Shown piece by piece: positions 29,815-41,701 of a DNA stretch of 64,000 nt. A model generated the notes under the pieces. The model did no database searches. It was not told the DNA's origin and worked only from the letters and a program-made list of their open reading frames with translations. This DNA is from Yoonia sp. Lineage in GTDB: Bacteria; Pseudomonadota; Alphaproteobacteria; Rhodobacterales; Rhodobacteraceae. Position 1 is the first letter of the stretch, and each line of letters begins with the position of its first letter. Where the stretch lies: contig NZ_JANQTS010000009.1 in the NCBI RefSeq assembly GCF_030731595.1, positions 7-64,006 on the forward strand, read 5' to 3'. A program made the position numbers and the translations under genes.

Positions 29815-31401
29815 CTAGTTTGCTTGGCGGCGCAAGAAAGCAGGAATCTCGATCTTTTCCTGCTCCTCGGACAGCTCTGGCTCGTTGTGCAAAGCTGTCA
29901 CTTGTGGCTGTGCGCGGGCAGGCTGCGGTGTGTGACCATCCGCTTGTGCGCCTGTCATACGGTTGATCAAAGAGTTGATTCCGAAACGTGGCCTTTCTGC
30001 TTCGACCGGAGCAGCAGGGGCTGGCTGTCGCGGTGTCTCTGCCTTTGGAACACGGTTCACCGCAGCCTGAAGACGCGCAAGTGCCTCTGGCGATGGTGTT
30101 CCGGGTGCTTGGGCGCGCGGCGCGACAAAGTGATCCGCCTCATTCAGCGCAGGCTCGGTGCGCGGCCGGTAAGCCGGTGGCGGCAAATCATCCGAAAGAG
30201 TCTGTGGTGCTGGCGCAACCTCACGCTGTGGCGCGTAGGTCTGAGCCTGTGGTGCTGGCGCCTCGAAGCTTTCAAAAAGTGTACGCTCCTGCGGCGCTGC
30301 TGCGGCGGCTGGCTGTGCCATGGCCGCAACGTCTGGCAGTTCTGCCTCGGGCTCTTCAACTGGCGCTGCTTCAACAATCGGCGCCAGAGGTGCGGCCATA
30401 GAGCGGCGAGCCACAGGTGCTTCGGTCCGCTTTGCAAGCGCATCAATGCCTGTCGCCACAACAGAAACGCGCATCTTGCCTTCCATGCTTGGATCGAGCG
30501 TTGAACCAACGATAATGTTTGCGTTCGGGTCGACCTTTTCACGGATTTTATTGGCCGCTTCATCCAGTTCAAACAGCGTCAGGTCGTAGCCGCCCGTGAT
30601 GTTGATCAGGACGCCCTTTGCGCCTTCCAGCGAAATCTCATCCAGAAGCGGGTTCGCAATGGCCTTTTCAGCGGCTTGAATGGCGCGGTTTTCACCCTCG
30701 GCTTCGCCGGTACCCATCATCGCCTTGCCCATTTCGTCCATCACGGCGCGGACATCTGCAAAATCAAGGTTGATCAGGCCCGGACGCACCATCAGGTCTG
30801 TCACACCTTTGACGCCCTGATAAAGCACGTCATCCGCAAGCGCGAAGGCCTCGGTAAATGTTGTATTTTCATTGGCCAGACGGAACAGGTTCTGGTTGGG
30901 AATGATGATCAGCGTATCGACAACTTTCTGAAGCGCCTCAACACCTTCTTCCGCTTGCCGCATGCGCTTGGCGCCTTCGAACTGGAAAGGTTTGGTGACG
31001 ACACCAACAGTCAACACGCCCAATTCGCGGGCTGCTTGTGCGATGATCGGCGCAGCACCTGTCCCGGTGCCACCACCCATGCCGGCTGTGATAAAGCACA
31101 TATGCGCCCCTGCCAGATGGTCGACAATCTGTTCGATGCTTTCTTCGGCGGCAGCCGCACCGACGGTTGCGCGTGCACCGGCGCCCAGACCTTCGGTGAC
31201 CTTGAGGCCCATCTGGATCTTGGCGCTGGCCCGCGACTGCTGGAGCGCCTGGGCATCTGTATTCGCAACAACGAAATCAGTGCCGTCAAGCTCTTGCTCG
31301 ATCATGTTATTGACCGCGTTGCCACCCGCGCCACCAACACCAAACACGGTGATCCGGGGTTTCAGTTCGTCGTGCCCTGGAAGGGAAAGATTCAAAGTCA
31401 T
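29815..31401 (-). CDS. ftsZ: Cell division protein FtsZ (long alphaproteobacterial linker)
   Basis: [10 protein letters not shown], tubulin signature GGGTGTG, NLDFADV and C-terminal [10 protein letters not shown]. Confidence 0.99.
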
Positions 31402-31575
31402 AACTCGATCCGCCTGTTTTTATAGCCCGTGCCCGCGGGCGTTTACTGCTTATTGATAGTCATAATAACGAAGTGGTGCTGAAAGGTCACGACAAAAACA
31501 CGAAATCGCCACCAAATCTGGACAAAAACTTGCCCGTTTCCGCCGTATTTCGACAAATCAGCAAGATATTGCGCA

Positions 31576-32910
31576 TTACCAGTTATCCTTGAACCATTTT
31601 ACCGCCCGTTTGAGCGATCTGGCGGGGTATCTGTCGGCGGGAATCTCGAAATCCCACCACTCGTCTTGCGGATTGGCCGCAAAAAGTGTCAGCCCCACCG
31701 CACTCGAAAACGCGGGGCCAATTGCCGCCTGCGGCAAGCCCTGAACACGCAGCGGACGCCCCAAGCGGACTTGCTGGCCAAGAATTTTGCTTGCCAATCC
31801 GTCCAGTCCGGGAATTTGACTGCCGCCACCTGTCAAGACGATCTGCTGGCTTGGAAGATGTTCGAACCCAGCAGCATCCAGCCGCGCGCGCACTTCTTCC
31901 AGAATCTCTTCGACCCGCGGGCGCATGATCCCGATCAACTCGGCGCGGCTCACGGTCCGGCGATCATGTTCCCAGTCACCCGTATCGCCGCCGATCTCGA
32001 TCATTTCGCGGTCGTCCATGCCGGTCGCGACGACGCCACCATAAAAGGTCTTGATCCGCTCTGCGGTTGGCGCGGGAATTTGCAGACCCATAGAGATGTC
32101 GGAAGTGACATGATCACCGCCCATGCGCACCGAATCCGCATAGATCATGTGTTTCTTCATAAAGACCGAAATCCCGGTAGAGCCGCCGCCAAGGTCAATA
32201 CAGGCCGCACCCAGTTCTTGTTCGTCCTCGACCAAGGACGACATCCCCGAAACATAGGCAGACGACGCAAGGCCCGCGAGTTCAAGATCGCAGCGCTTGA
32301 TGCAATAAAACAGGTTCTGAAGGGCCGTCGCATCGACCGTCAGCATATGCATATCCGTGGTCAGCTTGTTCCCGATCTGGCCACGCGGATCTGCCAGTCC
32401 GGACCGGTGATCCAGCGCAAAGTTCACCGGCTGCGCATGCAGAACCTCGCGGTCGGCGCCATAGTCGGGGACATCGCAGGAGGCCATGACCTGGCTGATG
32501 TCCTGCTCTGTCACGATACCGCCCGCGACATTCAGCGACCCGTCCAGACCATAAGAGCGCGGCCTTGCGCCGGACAGGCAGGCAATCACGTGATCAACGC
32601 GAACATTGGCCATCTTCTGGGCCGCCTGCACCGCCGTGCGAATGGCGCGCTCTGTCTCTTGCATGGCGTCAATCTCGCCAAAACGGACACCCCGAGACCG
32701 CGTCGTGGCCGCCCCGATCACCCGGAATTGCGATTGGCCGGCAAGAGAGCCGACACCATCGACACTCCGAAACTGCTCTGGCCCATCGAAACGCAACACA
32801 AGGCAGGCGATCTTGGACGTGCCTACATCCAAAATGGCGACGACCCCGCGCTGCATCGCTGCTTTGCGCATTTGCCGCATTGCCCGTTGGTTGTCGTACA
32901 GATCGCCCAT
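31576..32910 (-). CDS. ftsA: Cell division protein FtsA
   Basis: LDVGTSKI, IDLGGGST and VLTGGGSQ motifs. Confidence 0.97.
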   Translation of the reverse strand: MGDLYDNQRAMRQMRKAAMQRGVVAILDVGTSKIACLVLRFDGPEQFRSVDGVGSLAGQSQFRVIGAATTRSRGVRFGEIDAMQETERAIRTAVQAAQKMANVRVDHVIACLSGARPRSYGLDGSLNVAGGIVTEQDISQVMASCDVPDYGADREVLHAQPVNFALDHRSGLADPRGQIGNKLTTDMHMLTVDATALQNLFYCIKRCDLELAGLASSAYVSGMSSLVEDEQELGAACIDLGGGSTGISVFMKKHMIYADSVRMGGDHVTSDISMGLQIPAPTAERIKTFYGGVVATGMDDREMIEIGGDTGDWEHDRRTVSRAELIGIMRPRVEEILEEVRARLDAAGFEHLPSQQIVLTGGGSQIPGLDGLASKILGQQVRLGRPLRVQGLPQAAIGPAFSSAVGLTLFAANPQDEWWDFEIPADRYPARSLKRAVKWFKDNW

Positions 32911-33807
32911 CTAGTTGCCCGCCCCATTGTTGATTGTTGTACTTACACGGCGCAGCGCTGCTGCAGCCTCTTCATTCATCCGCAGCGTCGGTCTTTCCGC
33001 GTTGCGCATATCGACAACGGCCACGTCCCGGCTCAGCATGTCTTGCGCATCGTTCAGCGCGATCACCCGATCAAGCGCCGCAACCGGCCCTTCGGCTGGC
33101 AAAAGAATGCGCTGGTCCCGGTCCAGAACCATGTCCCACCGCCGTTCGCCCATACGGACGAGGCCACGGACACGCTCCAAAAGCGGACCGGAGGTGGCAA
33201 AAAGTGCCAAGGCCTCGCTGAGCGCCTCTTCTGCCCCATCGCCGGCGATCAAGGGCAGATCAAGCCGCTCCGCGCGGGCCGCAATCGTGCCAGAGATCAC
33301 ACCATCAGCGTCAATCAATTGAAGCGTTGCCCCGTCACGCCACAGTGCCACCGGCACTCGTGGTATCAACCGTACCTCAAGCACTCCGGCCTGACCGACA
33401 CGGACGCTTGCCGATTTGATCGGATCGAGGGCTTCGATATCGGCGCGGATTTTTTCGAGATCAAGATCAAAGGACGAGACAGGAAACTCCGACGGCAAAT
33501 GCACCGCGACTTCGGCCATCGACGCCAAATCACCCCCTGCAATGTTCATTGATTGCACCATGAACTGCGGGCGCTGCTGAAAGCTCTGTTTGGTCTCTGC
33601 GATAGTGGCCGCAAGGGCCGCGCGGTTCTCGGGCTTGGAATACCAAGAACCCGCAATGCTCGCGATCAGGATCAACGGCACCCCGATCCGGACCGCGGCA
33701 CGAAACCCGGGTGTCAGCATCAAACGCTGATACCGGTACCCCAGCTTTGATGGCGCGGGATCACGCGGGCCTGTATCAGCCACGGGTCGACGGATCAGCG
33801 ATCGCAT
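32911..33807 (-). CDS. ftsQ: Cell division protein FtsQ/DivIB
   Basis: Single TM plus POTRA/beta domain, RRWD and VVDMR motifs; located between ddl and ftsA. Confidence 0.9.
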   Translation of the reverse strand: MRSLIRRPVADTGPRDPAPSKLGYRYQRLMLTPGFRAAVRIGVPLILIASIAGSWYSKPENRAALAATIAETKQSFQQRPQFMVQSMNIAGGDLASMAEVAVHLPSEFPVSSFDLDLEKIRADIEALDPIKSASVRVGQAGVLEVRLIPRVPVALWRDGATLQLIDADGVISGTIAARAERLDLPLIAGDGAEEALSEALALFATSGPLLERVRGLVRMGERRWDMVLDRDQRILLPAEGPVAALDRVIALNDAQDMLSRDVAVVDMRNAERPTLRMNEEAAAALRRVSTTINNGAGN

Positions 33808-34709
33808 GATGCGTCCTCCACCATCCAGCGACAAAGCTGTGGAAATGAGACGCCCACATGTGCTGCCTGTTCAGGCGTGAGTGATGTGGGCGTCATACCG
33901 GGCTGGGTATTGGTTTCAAGCAGGATCAAGCCGTCGATTCCGCGGGCTTCGTCCCAACGGAAATCGGTGCGCGACACGCCACGACAGCCCAAAGCCACAT
34001 GGGCGCGCAGGGCATAATCCATGCAAGCGTCGAAAATCTGCGCGGGAATATCCGCAGGCAGCACATGGCGCGATCCACCGGGGGCGTATTTGGCGTGATA
34101 ATCATACCAGCCGTCCGTGATGATATCGGTCACCGTCAACGCGCGGTCCCCCATCACGGTCGTCGTCAACTCGCGACCGGGGGCATAGGTTTCGACCATG
34201 ACCCGGGCGGGCATATCCTTGGCCAGTTGTGGCGGGCCGTTCGCGTCTTCATTCACGATGTAGATGCCAACGCTGGAACCTTCGTTGTAAGGCTTCACCA
34301 CGTAGGGCGGCGGCATGACATGGGCGGCGCGCACATCAGCAGCGCTGGCCAGTATGCTATCGACAACAGGCAGACCGGCTTTGCGGTAAACATCTTTGGT
34401 GCGTTGCTTGTCGAGCGTGAGCGCAGAGGCCAGAATACCGGAATGGGTATAGGGAATGCGCAGCCACTCAAGAACGCCCTGAATGGCACCATCCTCGCCC
34501 CAGCGCCCATGCAGCGCATTAAAGACGACGTCGGGCGCGATTTCGATCAGGCGTGCAGCGACGTCGGGGCCAGCATCGACCTCGATCACGTCACATTCTG
34601 CTTCCCGCAAAGCTGCCGCACATTCACGGCCCGAACTGAGGGAAACCTCCCGCTCAGCCGATGGGCCGCCCATCAGGACAACAACTTTCGGGTTTGTCCT
34701 GCTCGACAT
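33795..34709 (-). CDS. ddl: D-alanine--D-alanine ligase
   Basis: MGGPSAEREVSLSSG, LHGRWGEDG, EGSSVG and LETNTQPGMT motifs. Confidence 0.97.
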   Translation of the reverse strand: MSSRTNPKVVVLMGGPSAEREVSLSSGRECAAALREAECDVIEVDAGPDVAARLIEIAPDVVFNALHGRWGEDGAIQGVLEWLRIPYTHSGILASALTLDKQRTKDVYRKAGLPVVDSILASAADVRAAHVMPPPYVVKPYNEGSSVGIYIVNEDANGPPQLAKDMPARVMVETYAPGRELTTTVMGDRALTVTDIITDGWYDYHAKYAPGGSRHVLPADIPAQIFDACMDYALRAHVALGCRGVSRTDFRWDEARGIDGLILLETNTQPGMTPTSLTPEQAAHVGVSFPQLCRWMVEDASCDR

Positions 34710-34789
34710 ACCCTACCGCCTTTGACGCAGGTCTTTTGCGACCTGTCTTTTCGTGTGATCCTTGCCTTGGATCGTGGCCTTTTGGCCAA

Positions 34790-35728
34790 TTATTTTGCGG
34801 TGTCTTCATCCAAACGATCACCGACCCGCATGATTTCCCATTGTAGCGTGATCCCTTGGGAATCGTAAACCTTTTTCCGCACCAATTCGCCCAAATCCTC
34901 TAGGTCGGCGGCACTCGCATTGCCGGCATTGGTCAGAAAGTTGGAATGCATCGTATTCATGATCGCGCCGCCAAGGGTCGCACCGCGCATACCTGCGTCA
35001 TCGATCACCTTCCACGCCTTGAGATCGTGGACATCATCGGCCCGTCCGGTCGAGGAAAAACCGGCAGGATTGCGGAAGGTTGACCCTGCGGTCCGGTCTT
35101 TTGTGGGCTGGGTTGCGTCGCGCTTGGCCAGTTGGTCCGTCATGCGCTGATGCAGCGTTTCTGGCGGGGCCTTGGCCGGACGAAAGCGCGCGGCAACAAT
35201 CACGGCGCCATCGGGCAAGGTGCTTTGGCGGTAGGCAAGATCCAGCGTATCGGCGCCGACTTCAGAGATTGCACCATCCCGCCCCACCACCGTCACCGAT
35301 GTCAAGACATCGGCCACATAGGATCCGTAGCAGCCGGCATTCATGCGCACTGCCCCGCCAATGGTTCCCGGGATCGTACGCAGGAATGTCAGATCAAGGC
35401 CCGCATCCGCCGCCTTGCGGGCGACATGGGCATCAAGGGCGGCGGCCCCTGCAATCACGTCGTCCCCGGCAATGTCGATGGCATTGAACCCGCGTCCCAT
35501 CCGAATGACGACACCGCGAATACCGCCATCCCGCACAATCAGGTTGCTGCCCACCCCCATCGGGAAAACCGGCACCGATGGATCAAGCGCCGCAAGGAAG
35601 GCTGAGAGGTCTTCGATATCCGCGGGTTGGAACAGCACATCGGCTGGTCCGCCGACACGCATCCATGTCAAATCCGCCAAGGATCGCTGCGCCGTCAGCG
35701 TGCCGCGCACCGCAGGTAATTCAAGCAT
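34790..35728 (-). CDS. murB: UDP-N-acetylenolpyruvoylglucosamine reductase
   Basis: [34 protein letters not shown] and HSNF motifs; ATG 35728 overlaps the upstream gene stop by 8 nt. Confidence 0.96.
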
Positions 35729-36008
35729 CAATCGCCTTTTCATATTTCGCCCACCCGATCAGGCCACCAATCAATGCCGCCACACCCCATGGAGCACTGA
35801 TGCCGATCAGGGCAAGAAGATAGCCCAAGCCATCCCAGCCGTTTGCGTTTTGCATTCCAAAAAACATGAAGACTGTAAAGGCTAACCAGACAGCGCCAAC
35901 CCCAACCAATGCCGCCCCTTTTTTGTTTTTGCCTAACTGGAAGGTGACAAAAACACTCGCTACGAAAACCGCAGTCGGAACCCCGAAAAGAATAATGGTC
36001 TCGTTCAT
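35721..36008 (-). CDS. Hypothetical 3-TM membrane protein A (95 aa)
   Basis: Three hydrophobic segments, GGGAGA RBS, about 48% GC counted over 35821-36000. Confidence 0.75.
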
Positions 36009-36025
36009 GATGATTCTCCCAAAAA

Positions 36026-36068
36026 TGAACTATGTTCAAATTAGTAGTCCAATCGTGAACAGTGTTCA
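36026..36068. promoter_or_regulatory. Tandem palindromic operators TGAAC-N3-GTTCA over a sigma70-like promoter
   Basis: TGAACTATGTTCA (36026-36038) and TGAACAGTGTTCA (36056-36068), 30 bp apart. Minus strand reads TTGAAC-N17-TACTAA (36069-36041). Confidence 0.65.
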
Positions 36069-36093
36069 AGAAAAAAATTATGGGCGATGCTTT

Positions 36094-36381
36094 TCAAACC
36101 ACTCGATCATCCTGCCTACGCAACAACCACCCCAGAAAGGCCCCTGCCGTGCTTCCCAGAAAGGCAGGTACACAGACCAGCAGTGCGACCGTCATCGCAA
36201 ACACCGGATTGATCCCGAAGGGCCGTCCGCTGGCAAAGATGAAAATGGCAAGCGTTGCCCCGATAAGACAGAGAATTGTCACCGCGAGCCCGTTTCGCCC
36301 TGACCGGACCAGCCAAGTCAGCAAGGCAAAGGGCAGCATCGCGCAGAAGACCATGCCGCCGAAAACATAAAGTTGCGTCAT
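36094..36381 (-). CDS. Hypothetical 3-TM membrane protein B (95 aa)
   Basis: MTQLYVFGG start, 4 nt after the DUF2484 stop, GAGG RBS, three hydrophobic segments. Confidence 0.72.
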   Translation of the reverse strand: MTQLYVFGGMVFCAMLPFALLTWLVRSGRNGLAVTILCLIGATLAIFIFASGRPFGINPVFAMTVALLVCVPAFLGSTAGAFLGWLLRRQDDRVV

Positions 36382-36385
36382 CTGA

Positions 36386-36661
36386 CTACCTCGCCACCTT
36401 GCCCCTGATCCAGCGCCAGAGAAAATAAACGGGCCATCGCAAGACGAGCCCACCGACCACGACCCCAAGCAGCCCCATGACAATCCCATATTGCCATGTG
36501 ATCCAGACCAGTAGCGGCGCTCCGATCCCCATCAGCACATAGGCACGCCGCCAATGGTTGTCGTTCGAAGGAAACGCCGCCATCACGAATGCCACAAGCA
36601 CCCAAAGCCCGATCAGGATCAAAGGATCCGCGAGGGTCTCGGTCAGCGCTTGCTTGGTCAT
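36386..36661 (-). CDS. DUF2484 family membrane protein
   Basis: W...[12 protein letters not shown]...G.PLL and VLRWPV pattern; ATGA overlap with murC. Confidence 0.8.
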
Positions 36662-38076
36662 TTTTCCAATCGCGCGGGCAACCTGTTCGCCCAGGTGCTA
36701 ATCGTACCCGCCCCCAGACAGACAACCATATCGCCCGGTTTCGCCTGCTCGCGCACAAGCCTTTCCAGATCATCCTCGGATTCAACCGTGCGGGCGTGAC
36801 GGTGCCCGTGGCGGATCAATCCCGCCACAAGATCGGTATGGCTGGCCCCTGCAATCGGGTCTTCGCCGGCGGAAAAGACCTCTGCGATGCCGACGACATC
36901 GGCGTCATTGAAGCAGGCGCAGAATTCATCGAAATGATGCGACAGCCGTGTGAAACGGTGCGGCTGGTGGACAGCGATCACGCGCCCCTCGGTCGACTGC
37001 CGTGCGGCTTTCAACACGGCTGTGATCTCGACCGGATGGTGGCCGTAGTCGTCAATGATGGTCACGCCACCCACTTCACCGACTTTGGTAAACCGGCGAT
37101 TGACGCCGCGAAAGCCTTTCAACGCGGTCTTGATCTGCTCTTTCTTCATGCCCAGATGCCGCGCCACCGCGACAGCTGCCAAAGCATTCGAGACATTGTG
37201 ATCCCCCGGCATCGGCAATTCGCAGCCTTCGATCACGGCACCTTCGGCCTGCAATGCGATATCAAAATGCGCGACCCCCGCCTTGTATGTCAGGTTCATG
37301 GCGCGCACATCCGCCTGCGCATTAAAGCCAAAGGTGACAACACGGCGATCCGTGATCTTGCCCACGAGTGACTGCACATCCGGATCATCGGTGCAGCAGA
37401 CCGCCAGACCGTAGAACGGAATGTTCGACACAAAATCGTAAAAGCCCTTATGCAGCGCCTCGACCGTGCCCCAGTGTTCCATATGTTCGGGGTCGATATT
37501 GGTCACAATGGCGATGGTCGCGGGCAGGCGGTTGAACGTCCCGTCGCTTTCGTCGGCCTCGACCACCATCCACTCGCCCTGCCCCATACGGGCGTTCGAG
37601 CCATAGGCGTGGATGATGCCGCCATTGATCACCGTTGGATCAATCCCGCCTTCATCCAGCAAAGCTGCAACCATCGTGGTCGTTGTCGTCTTGCCATGTG
37701 TTCCGGCCACGGCCACATTCGATTTCAGGCGCATCAGTTCGGCCAGCATTTCCGCGCGGCGCACGACCGGCAGACCTTTTTTGCGGGCCTCGTCCAGCTC
37801 GGGGTTGCCCGATTTGATCGCAGAAGAGATCACGACAACCTCGGCCCCTTCCAGATTATCCGCGCGCTGGCCTTCAAAAATGATCGCACCCAGCGATTTC
37901 AGACGGTCGGTGATCTTTGACGCCTTCAGGTCAGAGCCTTGGACCCGATAGCCATGGTTCAAAAGCACCTCTGCGATGCCCGACATCCCGATGCCACCAA
38001 TGCCCACAAAATGGATCGGACCCACATCAAGGGGCAGTTTCGTTGCAGCGCTCATTACAGGGTTCCCATCCATCAT
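36658..38076 (-). CDS. murC: UDP-N-acetylmuramate--L-alanine ligase
   Basis: [27 protein letters not shown] and DDYGHHP motifs. Confidence 0.98.
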
Positions 38077-39170
38077 TTCTTGCCCGCCTCTGCCAGATTT
38101 TCAACCAATTGTACAAGACGCGCTGTCGCGTCAGGCACGCCGCACGCCAAAGCTGCTTGGGCCATTTGCAACATACCTTGCTCGTCAGACAGCAATTCCG
38201 TCAGCTTTGCCGTCAAAGGTGCGACTTCAAATTGGCCTTCGGTCATCAGCACCGCAGCGCCGGCGTCAACCAACTGCCGGGCATTGGCGGTCTGCTCGTC
38301 GCGGATCGCGCCACCATAGGGCACCCATATCGTAGGGCGCCCGATGACGCTGACATCGGCCACTGTTGACGCGCCAGAGCGCGAGATGACAAGTTGCGCA
38401 TCCGCCATGCGGCGCGGCACATCATTGAAAAAGCTTTGCACATCCGCCTTGATCAACTCGGCGGCGTAATACGCCGTCACCCGCTCTAGATCTTCTGGCC
38501 GCGCCTGATGGCTGACCCGAATGTTCCGGCGGATATGTTCAGGCAAGGCGGCAATCGCTGGCGGTACGATATCGGACATGATGCGCGCGCCCTGCGATCC
38601 GCCCATGACAAGGAGTGCCATCGGATAATCACCCGGCGGTATATAGGGGGATCCCGCATGTTCCAATATCACAGAGCGGACAGGGTTGCCGGTATGAACG
38701 CCTTCAACCCCTTTGGGCAAGTCCGCAGGCCATGTCCCGCAGGCAATCTGGTTCACGCGCCTAGCGAAGACCTGGTTCACCCGCCCCAACACACCGTTTT
38801 GTTCGTGTATCATCCGCGGAATGCGCAGTACCCAAGCCGCAGTCATTGCGGGGATCGCAGGATAGCCACCAAAGCCTACGACAACCGCAGGACGGTCACG
38901 CAACATACGCCATTTGGCGGCACCAATGCCGCCCAAGATACGAAACGGAACAAGCAGTTTCTGGACGATGCCGCCACGGGCAAAGGTCGCACTGCCGACA
39001 ACGCTGACCTCAACCGCCTCGGGAAAGCCGCCTGCATAGCGCGCGCCGCGGGCATCCGTAGAAAGGCGCACCCGCCAACCCTTTGCCAGCATCGCCTCGG
39101 CCAAGGCTTGGGCCGGAAACATATGCCCGCCCGTGCCACCTGCGGCGATAATGAGTAGCGGCGCTGTCAT
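38073..39170 (-). CDS. murG: Undecaprenyldiphospho-muramoylpentapeptide GlcNAc transferase
   Basis: [26 protein letters not shown] and SRSGAST motifs; ATGA overlap with ftsW. Confidence 0.97.
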
Positions 39171-40336
39171 CGGTTCGCCCGTCGCAACAGGATATCGCCC
39201 ATCTCGCCTTGCGGACGGGTGCGGGTGAAGGCCAGCAACATGCCCATCGCAATGCCGCCAGCAATCAACGACGACCCGCCATAAGACACGAAAGGCAGCG
39301 TCATCCCCTTGGCAGGCAAAAGGCGCACTGCCACGCCCATGTTGATCATGGCTTGGACGCCGAAGGCACAAACGAGGCCGGTCCCGGCAAGGCGAATAAA
39401 CACATCGCGCTCTTTCATCAGGCGCAGGAGCGAACGCACCACGATCACGGCATAAAGGGCGATGATAACCAGCACGCAGATCAGGCCATACTCTTCAGCT
39501 GCCACCGCGATTATGAAATCTGTATGGGCATCCGGCAGCGACCACTTCACCTGCCCCTCACCGACGCCCACACCAAAGAAACCGCCTTCGCGAATGGCAT
39601 TGGTCGCATAGCCAAGCTGTGTGTTTGGATCGAGGTCAGGAGACAGAAACCCGTCAATCCGGCGGGCGAAGTGTTCCGAATTGGAATAGGCGACAGCGCC
39701 GCCGAACATCACAAGTCCCGCCAAGACGATCAGCACAGTCATCGGCGCGCCTGCCACGAAATACATCACCCCCCAAGCGAAGAGGACCAAAGCGGCTTGG
39801 CCAAAGTCAGGCTGCATCGCCAGCATAAGGACAATGACCATCGTCAACACAAACGAATAGCTTTTGCCCGGCGGACCGCCCAACTGCTGTGCTGCCGCCA
39901 AGAGCCACGCCGTCATGACCACAAAACCGGGCTTGAGAAATTCAGAAGGCTGCACAGAGGCAAAGCCCAGCGAATACCACCGGGTGGCGCCTTTGCCGAA
40001 ATCCGTGCCGAAGACAGGCAGGAATGCAAGTGCCGCAAAGGCACAAAGAAAACCCAAAACGGCCAAGCGACGGACCAGTGTCGGTGACATCATCGACACG
40101 ATAAACATCGCAATCATGGCCGCTCCGCCAAAAATGGCCTGACGGGTCACATAATGGAAAGGCTCCAGCCCGTTCTTGGCTGCCAGGGGCGGCGACGAGG
40201 CAAGACCCAAAAGCAACCCGATCCCGAACAACAACAGGATGCAGGACATCGTCCACTTGTCAATTGTCCGCCACCATCGGGGAAGAACCGGGTCACCGGA
40301 TTGTACCGGGACCGTCCCATAGACCATTTCCGTCAT
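39167..40336 (-). CDS. ftsW: SEDS peptidoglycan polymerase FtsW
   Basis: [21 protein letters not shown] and [10 protein letters not shown] motifs. Confidence 0.97.
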
Positions 40337-40522
40337 GGATCACCGCCATACTGCCTCAACCGCCCGTTTTCCGGGTCTGGGGGCAGCATAACCCGCAATT
40401 CCCAGCGATTCCACCGAAATTCGGCCCCTTTTGTGTTTCTTTCTTCAGGCCGTCTGCCGCCAATGGCCAAGATCATCCGTAAGAATTTGATCTCCCCCTG
40501 CCCTTGCGCCATATGCAGCGCC

Positions 40523-41701
40523 ATGAAGATAGAAACGCTGATCATCGGGGCCGGAGCCGCAGGCATGATGTGCGCCGCCCATGCGGGGCGCGGCGTGCTT
40601 GTCGTGGACCACGCCAAAGCGCCGGGCGAAAAGATCCGTATTTCTGGCGGCGGGCGGTGCAACTTTACCAATCTGCACACAAGTCCCGCGAATTTCATCA
40701 GTCAGAACAAGCACTTCAGCAAGTCGGCTCTGGGCCGCTATACACAATGGGATTTTATCGCATTGGTCGATCAGCACCGCATCGCATGGCATGAAAAAAC
40801 GCTGGGGCAGCTTTTCTGCGATGACAGCGCCAAGGACATCATCGCGATGCTGCGGGCCGAGATGGACAAGGCTGGCGCCCAGCTTTGGCTGCACACCGAA
40901 GTGGGCGAAATCGGCCATGACGGGACCCATTTTCAGGTGACCCTGATCCGCGACGGTCGGCACATACAGGTTGAGACAAAGAACCTAGTTGTCGCCTGCG
41001 GCGGCAAGTCCATTCCCAAAATGGGGGCGACAGGTCTGGGATATCAGATCGCCGCACAATTCGGCGTGCCGGTCGTGACACCTCGGCCGGGGCTCGTGCC
41101 GCTGACATTCTCGGACGAGAGGTTCAAACCGCTTGCGGGTGTTGCAACGCCTGCGCGGGTCAGCACACAGGGTGTCAGTTTTGACGAAGCGGTCCTGTTT
41201 ACTCACCGTGGCCTGTCCGGCCCCGCTGTCTTGCAAGTCTCATCCTATTGGCACGAAAGCGTGCCGATCCAGATCAACCTTAACCCCATGGGCGATCTTT
41301 TCGGCGCACTGCAATCGCACCGCCAAAGCGACGGGCGCAAGGCGCTCACCACGGTGCTGGGGCTGCATCTTCCGGCGCGATTGGTGGATTTTCTACGCGC
41401 AGACCTGCCGTTGGAGGGCAATATCGCCGACCAAAGCGACAGCAAGCTCAAAGCTTTGTGTGACGCGCTTTCCGCGTGGTCGCTGATGCCTGCAGGGTCA
41501 GAGGGCTATCGCACGGCAGAGGTGACACTGGGCGGGGTTGATACCGATGCACTGTCATCCAAAACGATGGAAACAAAGGCTGTGGCTGGCCTTTATTTCA
41601 TCGGGGAATGTGTGGATGTGACCGGATGGCTGGGCGGGTATAACTTCCAGTGGGCGTGGTCATCGGGCTGGGCTGCGGGACAGGCGATCAGGGCTGCGTG
41701 A
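40523..41701 (+). CDS. NAD(P)/FAD-dependent oxidoreductase, HI0933/BaiN/YhiN family
   Basis: IIGAGAAG, KIRISGGGRCNFTN, LFTHRGLSGP, AEVTLGGV and GWLGGYNFQWA motifs; true start 40523. Confidence 0.92.
   Translation: MKIETLIIGAGAAGMMCAAHAGRGVLVVDHAKAPGEKIRISGGGRCNFTNLHTSPANFISQNKHFSKSALGRYTQWDFIALVDQHRIAWHEKTLGQLFCDDSAKDIIAMLRAEMDKAGAQLWLHTEVGEIGHDGTHFQVTLIRDGRHIQVETKNLVVACGGKSIPKMGATGLGYQIAAQFGVPVVTPRPGLVPLTFSDERFKPLAGVATPARVSTQGVSFDEAVLFTHRGLSGPAVLQVSSYWHESVPIQINLNPMGDLFGALQSHRQSDGRKALTTVLGLHLPARLVDFLRADLPLEGNIADQSDSKLKALCDALSAWSLMPAGSEGYRTAEVTLGGVDTDALSSKTMETKAVAGLYFIGECVDVTGWLGGYNFQWAWSSGWAAGQAIRAA

Follow-up and report, generated by a model that had tools for sequence, protein, structure and literature searches.

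A predicted promoter with paired operators for a TetR-family repressor ahead of murB-ddl-ftsQAZ in Yoonia, a candidate arm of a membrane-stress regulon

The 64-kb window (the whole stretch of DNA from a marine Yoonia sp. that was analysed, 64,000 nt) carries a cluster of division and cell-wall genes on its minus strand. By Pfam assignment the gene order is murD, a flavoprotein gene on the opposite strand, ftsW, murG, murC, a DUF2484 gene, a small frame termed ORF-B and an AT-rich spacer; 3' of the spacer the cluster continues with a second small frame (ORF-C), murB, ddl, ftsQ, ftsA, ftsZ and lpxC. The coordinates are listed in Table 1. A first-pass annotation, made from the sequence alone, had placed the spacer inside an otherwise tightly packed operon, directly ahead of murB-ddl-ftsQ-ftsA-ftsZ. 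The downstream genes agree by Pfam, and the dense packing holds from ftsW onward, but it starts only there: the HI0933-like flavoprotein gene (40154-41701, plus strand) sits between murD and ftsW and splits the cluster, and ftsW-murG-murC onward therefore needs its own promoter. The longest frame of murG (38073-39371, minus strand) opens with a TTG codon, encodes 432 aa and reaches about 200 nt into ftsW; the true start of murG probably lies downstream of this codon.

Table 1. Features of the murC-murB gap and its surroundings, with the candidate regulator gene on contig C46
Feature	Position	Strand	Basis or remark
murC	36658-38076	-	Pfam
DUF2484 small membrane-protein gene, 91 aa	36386..36661	-	Pfam DUF2484, 62 bits (cut-off 25)
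ORF-B, 95 aa, three TM	36094..36381	-	native small gene of the murC-murB gap
Regulatory spacer, 85 bp, AT-rich (34% GC)	36009..36093	-	A/T tract, promoter, two operators, RBS
-35 hexamer TTGAAC	36064-36069	-	T before O1 plus O1 half-site
Operator O1, TGAACACTGTTCA (coding strand)	36056..36068	.	predicted operator; overlaps -35
-10 element TACTAA	36041..36046	-	17 nt after TTGAAC
Operator O2, TGAACATAGTTCA (coding strand)	36026..36038	.	predicted operator; covers predicted start (~36033-36035)
RBS GGGAG	36016..36020	-	7 nt ahead of ORF-C ATG
ORF-C, 95 aa, three helices	35721..36008	-	ATG at 36008; family alignment, AlphaFold2
murB	34790..35728	-	Pfam MurB_C and FAD_binding_4; ATG 35726-35728, stop at 34790
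ddl, ftsQ, ftsA, ftsZ	29815..34709	-	Pfam
TetR-family gene, candidate regulator	C46:2067-2663		TetR_N 27.2 bits (cut-off 24), TetR_C_33 36.3 bits (cut-off 26.8)

At the upstream end of the murC-murB gap the ATG of the DUF2484 gene overlaps the murC stop, and the synteny of this gene is kept in all relatives examined. At the downstream end the ORF-C TGA (35721-35723) and the murB ATG give the two genes the 8 shared nucleotides that had been reported for them, so that murB would be co-transcribed with ORF-C; given this overlap, the two genes are probably also translationally coupled. The 95-aa product with three helices that had been described for ORF-C was borne out by AlphaFold2 on a family alignment (helices at residues 3-27, 31-54 and 58-94; pLDDT 71), but its GC content is 50% and not the 48% given earlier, compared with 34% in the spacer and 57-60% in the neighbouring genes. 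No intrinsic terminator was found upstream of the spacer promoter by RNA folding, and none was found in the direction of the genes in the murB-ddl gap by terminator scan and inspection of the gap sequence. Two GC-rich hairpins are present in the murB-ddl gap, at 34727-34746 and 34775-34788, with T-runs on the plus strand only; they look like terminators of antisense transcription, not of transcription from murB to ddl.

The first-pass annotation had described an 85-bp AT-rich spacer with two TGAAC-N3-GTTCA palindromes 30 bp apart, one over the -35 and the other over the predicted start of a TTGAAC-N17-TACTAA promoter, and both the sequence and the coordinates agree with this description. The two exact dyads, O1 and O2, are spaced by exactly 30 bp, and O2 begins 3 nt past the -10 element; the 13-bp dyads thereby lie over the core promoter, on the -35 and the +1 (36026-36068). 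A strict promoter scan built on the E. coli consensus of the TATAAT type did not call the spacer promoter, because its -35 and -10 fit that consensus badly, the -10 ending in A. The housekeeping promoter consensus of rhizobia is CTTGAC-N17-CTATAT, and the two spacer elements resemble this type. The LexA box of alphaproteobacteria is a GTTC-N7-GTTC direct repeat; no such repeat occurs in the spacer and a LexA site was dropped as a candidate. Both of the exact dyads present in the 64-kb window are in the spacer, against 0.06 expected for the window, and one of 100 shuffled versions of the window reached two.

A genome-wide scan for the dyad, especially at autoregulated TetR/MarR genes, had been suggested as a check. 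The whole Yoonia sp. assembly (3.27 Mb, 58% GC) contains eight exact TGAAC-N3-GTTCA dyads versus about two expected, and all eight are located in AT-rich DNA just upstream of genes, at five promoters. Besides the pair in the spacer, one dyad is found on contig C46, about 16 nt ahead of the start codon of a TetR-family gene, and two flank a CTTGCA-N17-CTATCT promoter of the pspA gene next to it. The pspA operon encodes, in this order, PspA/IM30, a YiaAB-like membrane protein, a PlsC-like acyltransferase and a CdsA-like cytidylyltransferase. Two more dyads flank a GTTGAC-N17-CTACCA promoter of a lipoprotein-DUF2145 operon on contig C71, and the last one is ahead of a secreted-protein gene on contig C22. 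Allowing one mismatch gave 65 further matches, mostly in DNA of ordinary GC content. The PspA/IM30 assignment rests on PF04012 (70 bits versus a cut-off of 33.9); against the NCBIfam equivalog for enterobacterial PspA the same protein scored 24 bits, under the 243-bit cut-off, and PspF/sigma-54, PspB and PspC were not seen among the genes adjoining pspA. On contig C22 (19126-19151) the exact dyad abuts a one-mismatch copy (TGAACATTATTCA) ahead of the gene for a 408-aa secreted protein without family, and a comparable abutting pair precedes the gene for a 489-aa secreted protein in the genome of a relative (G096).

Alignment of 78 dyad sites from relatives gave the consensus TGAAC-R-N-Y-GTTCA with AT-rich flanks. 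The half-sites are invariant in all 78 sites and compensatory changes are absent, which argues for recognition of DNA by a protein and not for an RNA hairpin. A reading of the pair as a non-functional leftover, a chance match or an RNA hairpin or terminator is extremely improbable: a 5-bp stem per dyad could form and a run of seven Ts precedes O1, but the fold of the region is weaker than that of shuffled controls (z = +1.8) and the 78 sites show no covariation, while the window counts, the genome counts and the conservation exclude chance. On the same fold result, an upstream terminator in the spacer region was dropped.

The genes behind the dyads suggest that the murB cassette is one arm of a small regulon for membrane stress and phospholipid homeostasis. 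They include PspA/IM30, the YiaAB-like, PlsC-like and CdsA-like proteins and the lipoprotein-DUF2145 operon and, in other genomes, an LplT-Aas fusion and a membrane protein of about 398 aa, and from this content we infer that the signal is membrane damage or lipid imbalance, with a lipid-like ligand. The envelope-stress input that had been proposed from the locus fits such a regulon, down to the LplT-Aas fusion in another genus. The protein of about 398 aa is a multi-pass membrane protein without a Pfam family and with an N-terminus like M-x-H-V-V-x-T...EGVLT; its gene repeatedly follows one or two dyads in other genera, and does so in one genome of Yoonia as well. In another genus (L123:2646-5201) a homologous TetR gene is divergent from a gene for an MFS-acyltransferase-AMP-binding fusion, with three dyads between the two; a fusion of this composition is of the LplT-Aas type, which acts in lysophospholipid repair.

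The first-pass annotation had placed a TetR- or MarR-type repressor in trans, and the occurrence of the same dyad before a TetR gene and the pspA operon at about 130 related loci is consistent with a trans-acting repressor of the TetR type. The closest solved relative of the C46 protein is PDB 3cjd (E 3.3e-55, residues 1-194), whose title reads "Transcriptional regulator, TetR family"; neither this title nor the literature searched gave a function for it, and no citing paper was found. Matches to the named TetR proteins AcrR, KstR, BetI and FasR were marginal (E 1e-4 to 1e-7). At 20 of 20 Yoonia loci tetR is preceded by one dyad and pspA by two. A dyad, either exact or one mismatch away, was present 23-31 bp ahead of the tetR ATG in all of the 80 named loci examined in Yoonia, Loktanella, Octadecabacter, Pseudooctadecabacter and Cognatiyoonia; the usual layout in these relatives is one dyad before tetR and two or three before pspA. 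When the family Rhodobacteraceae was sampled at one genome per genus, 84 of 400 other genera had a TetR orthologue at E <= 1e-30. In all 29 of the other-genus loci that were fetched an exact dyad was next to tetR, with TetR identity down to 52%, and pspA adjoins tetR in 22 of them. Genera whose TetR is 38-39% identical have the divergent order, with tetR opposite pspA-yiaAB or the LplT-Aas fusion, and the half-site is unchanged.

The dyads also follow the presence of the gene. TetR was found in 38 of the 40 Yoonia genomes with paired dyads (the two exceptions are 55% and 88% complete) and in 11 of the 12 other genera whose dyads form close pairs, versus 84 of 400 overall, although these counts overstate the statistical weight since related genomes are non-independent samples. 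Five complete Yoonia genomes that lack TetR contained 13 scattered, unpaired dyads with GC-rich centres, compared with 10 matches to the control pattern, and the trio of dyads at tetR and pspA was seen in five TetR-positive genomes. A link of this kind, together with co-occurrence, is the usual signature of a regulator and its cognate operator, and for this reason we regard the C46 TetR as very likely the protein that binds the dyads. The other way to read the regulon is that a different transcription factor binds and the tetR gene is a mere target. Membership in a regulon does not by itself name the binding protein; this reading is nevertheless quite improbable, as the dyad-tetR link is kept across about 85 genera, in tandem and divergent orders and down to 38% identity, the TetR-less genomes checked show no dyad clusters, and no other regulator gene is consistently nearby. 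With the C46 TetR as the candidate binding protein, the dyad ahead of its own gene points to autoregulation, and we infer repression rather than activation at the spacer.

The distribution of the module was followed across relatives, as had been proposed earlier, and it is present in some Yoonia species and absent from others. Relatives were ascertained by searching with the ORF-C protein, a query blind to the dyads, and this gave 12 Yoonia genomes with ORF-C identity of 35-56%. All 12 have ORF-C in the position between ORF-B and murB, with two exact dyads ahead of it at a spacing of 28-30 bp; over a wider set of relatives the distance from O1 to O2 is 28-32 bp. An alignment of 13 spacers is invariant at TTGAAC...GTTCA and at TGAAC...GTTCA. 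Also kept are the tA of the -10 (cTA/TAnnnA at the -10 position of the relatives), the A-rich tract before the -35, GGAG and aatcATG, whereas the remaining spacer positions, the N3 centres among them, differ between relatives. At least 40 of the 102 Yoonia genomes have the exact pair, each of them a single time; this is a lower bound, as one more genome carries a cassette in which one of the dyads is a mismatch away from exact, and another has one dyad with a truncated ORF-C. Two deep-branching Yoonia, with TetR 57-58% identical, carry the dyad pair in the same place. No close dyad pair was found at murB in the 400-genus sample.

Yoonia genomes without the cassette join ORF-B, or even the DUF2484 gene, directly to murB, and in some genomes of the genus the operators are followed by two ORF-C copies in tandem. 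The branching within Yoonia in a MurB tree of 23 loci is compatible both with one gain followed by losses and with several gains. Between murC and murB, Yoonia species have from 1 to 5 small membrane-protein genes, made up of 1-2 DUF2484, 0-1 ORF-B and 0-2 ORF-C genes. Two loci look like decaying cassettes: at G008:C1:139502-139765 the first ORF-C copy has an in-frame TAA, and in the relative G044 one dyad and the C-terminal half of ORF-C are left. Judged by matching contig coordinates, the cultured strains Yoonia maricola DSM 29128, Roseobacter sp. CCS2, Yoonia sp. R78084 and Yoonia sp. F2084L probably carry the cassette. Y. maritima DSM 101533, by the same matching, has the TetR, but its gene order is murC-DUF2484-murB and no cassette was found; an exact dyad pair was likewise not found in Y. 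tamlensis DSM 26879 or Y. vestfoldensis DSM 16212.

ORF-C had been taken for an acquired gene, and this claim did not survive profile comparison. No family model in Pfam or NCBIfam matched ORF-C, and a single-sequence search of the genome collection gave no match; a profile search of 1.84 billion proteins recovered 134 clusters at 50% identity, which makes the family a small one. ORF-C has the invariant motifs GWD, AP and G..G. Membership in DUF2484 (PF10658) was considered for ORF-C and rejected: neither ORF-C nor ORF-B matched the model, and only the gene at 36386-36661 did. The profiles of ORF-C and ORF-B were aligned end to end by hhalign (probability 80%, E 1.5e-5, 88 colinear columns), with the G-[WI]-D and P-A..G..G-A..G-W motifs in register. 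Both profiles also match the single small gene in the slot between DUF2484 and murB in 21 other genera; these homologues are weak and their slot has no dyads. The GC content of ORF-C is only moderately low, and no repeats or mobility genes were seen at the locus. On these profile matches we concluded that ORF-C is a distant paralogue of its neighbour ORF-B and that the murC-murB gap is the native place of their family; a foreign origin was rejected. Since homologues of ORF-C natively fill the slot without dyads, the new element at the locus is the operator-bearing promoter that a native paralogue has come under. The simplest reading is that a native small membrane-protein gene was duplicated locally and brought under a promoter of the regulon early in Yoonia, and has been lost repeatedly since.

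Taken with the dyad distribution, the layout of the spacer points to a likely promoter of the sigma-70 type, on which a TetR repressor encoded elsewhere in the genome, on C46, would act through two operators. Bound about three helical turns from each other, two repressor dimers would shut the promoter by covering its -35 and start site. A membrane- or lipid-derived signal would free the repressor from the operators, and transcription would then start in the spacer, give the three-helix membrane protein from ORF-C and proceed to murB, the stop of the first gene overlapping the start of the second. The transcript would probably continue into ddl-ftsQ-ftsA-ftsZ, since the murB-ddl gap showed no terminator for this direction. 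The same repressor would also control its own gene, the adjacent pspA-yiaAB-plsC-cdsA operon and the lipoprotein-DUF2145 operon. If so, membrane stress is probably wired into the expression of cell-wall and division genes in Yoonia.

The murB gene is essential and lies directly behind the operators, and it must therefore be expressed while the promoter is repressed. Its supply under repression would come from upstream read-through that passes the bound repressor or from a leaky promoter; the spacer promoter may thus add little to murB expression, or repressor on the operators may reduce read-through instead. The second possibility can be taken further, with a roadblock as the main effect: the bound repressor would damp read-through from the upstream promoter of ftsW-murG-murC into murB-ftsZ, and induction would relieve this block, new initiation in the spacer counting for less. 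The operators do lie inside a co-directional string of genes with no upstream terminator, two adjacent bound dimers are a plausible obstacle, and the cassette-less genomes have ORF-B joined directly to murB. A roadblock component is to be taken seriously, but we consider it unlikely that blocking is the main effect, given that a complete promoter (A-tract, -35 and -10) is conserved along with the operators, which a pure roadblock does not need, and that the dyads at pspA and the lipoprotein operon are found around ordinary promoters. One effect does not exclude the other, and control of the promoter by the repressor can coexist with a block of read-through.

Each part of the proposed system has known counterparts: repressors of the TetR type that act on palindromic operators, stress operons with PspA, and conditional promoters within clusters of division and cell-wall genes. 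Classical repressor-operator pairs of the TetR family include TetR-tetO and QacR, and members that sense fatty acids or lipids include FadR of Bacillus, DesT and FabR. As in the classical systems, the C46 regulator combines a TetR_N helix-turn-helix with a C-terminal ligand domain, and its predicted short palindromic operators overlap the promoter, two per promoter, with one before its own gene; as with the lipid-sensing members, the target genes in Yoonia concern the membrane and lipids. Unlike in the classical systems, the candidate regulon takes in PspA/IM30 and reaches with one arm into the cluster of division and cell-wall genes, and the regulator gene is not adjacent to its murB target.

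Known controls of Psp systems are PspF with sigma-54 in enterobacteria, LiaRS-LiaIH in Bacillus and ClgR in mycobacteria. The Yoonia arrangement resembles them in that the PspA/IM30 gene has a stress-responsive regulator of its own and small membrane proteins as partners. It differs in its candidate regulator, a repressor of the TetR type; TetR is not mentioned at all in two comparative surveys of Psp systems. Conditional promoters are also known in division and cell-wall clusters, with MraZ at the cluster head, RcsB, SdiA and RpoS at ftsQAZ of E. coli, and CtrA and DnaA at ftsQA and ftsZ of Caulobacter. The spacer would likewise be a conditional promoter that feeds the distal genes murB-ddl-ftsQAZ, but the input differs from these in coming from a TetR-type repressor shared with a PspA regulon, in being delivered through a small membrane-protein gene that overlaps murB, and in being restricted to a part of one genus. 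The first-pass annotation knew of no description of this arrangement, and in the literature searched we likewise found none of a TetR-family PspA regulator, of the dyad operator or of such an input before murB-ddl-ftsQAZ.

What is known of the regulation of PspA-type membrane repair comes largely from enterobacteria, Firmicutes and actinobacteria. The present analysis offers a concrete candidate PspA regulator for the Roseobacter group, namely a TetR-family repressor with the operator TGAAC-N3-GTTCA and a candidate regulon that includes phospholipid enzymes. It also suggests a likely biological role for the protein family that includes the structural-genomics entry 3cjd. As a wider picture, which we put forward tentatively and as possible rather than probable, a widespread Rhodobacteraceae TetR that regulates PspA and senses membrane damage or lipids may have been recruited in Yoonia to couple membrane stress directly to the synthesis of peptidoglycan precursors and the dosage of divisome genes (murB-ddl-ftsQAZ), with the co-induced ORF-C as a stress-specific modulator of the machinery for the cell wall or division. 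Sister species without the cassette or without the repressor are natural comparators, and the switch ahead of murB-ddl-ftsQAZ would be a simple route by which membrane stress could tune cell-wall synthesis and division.
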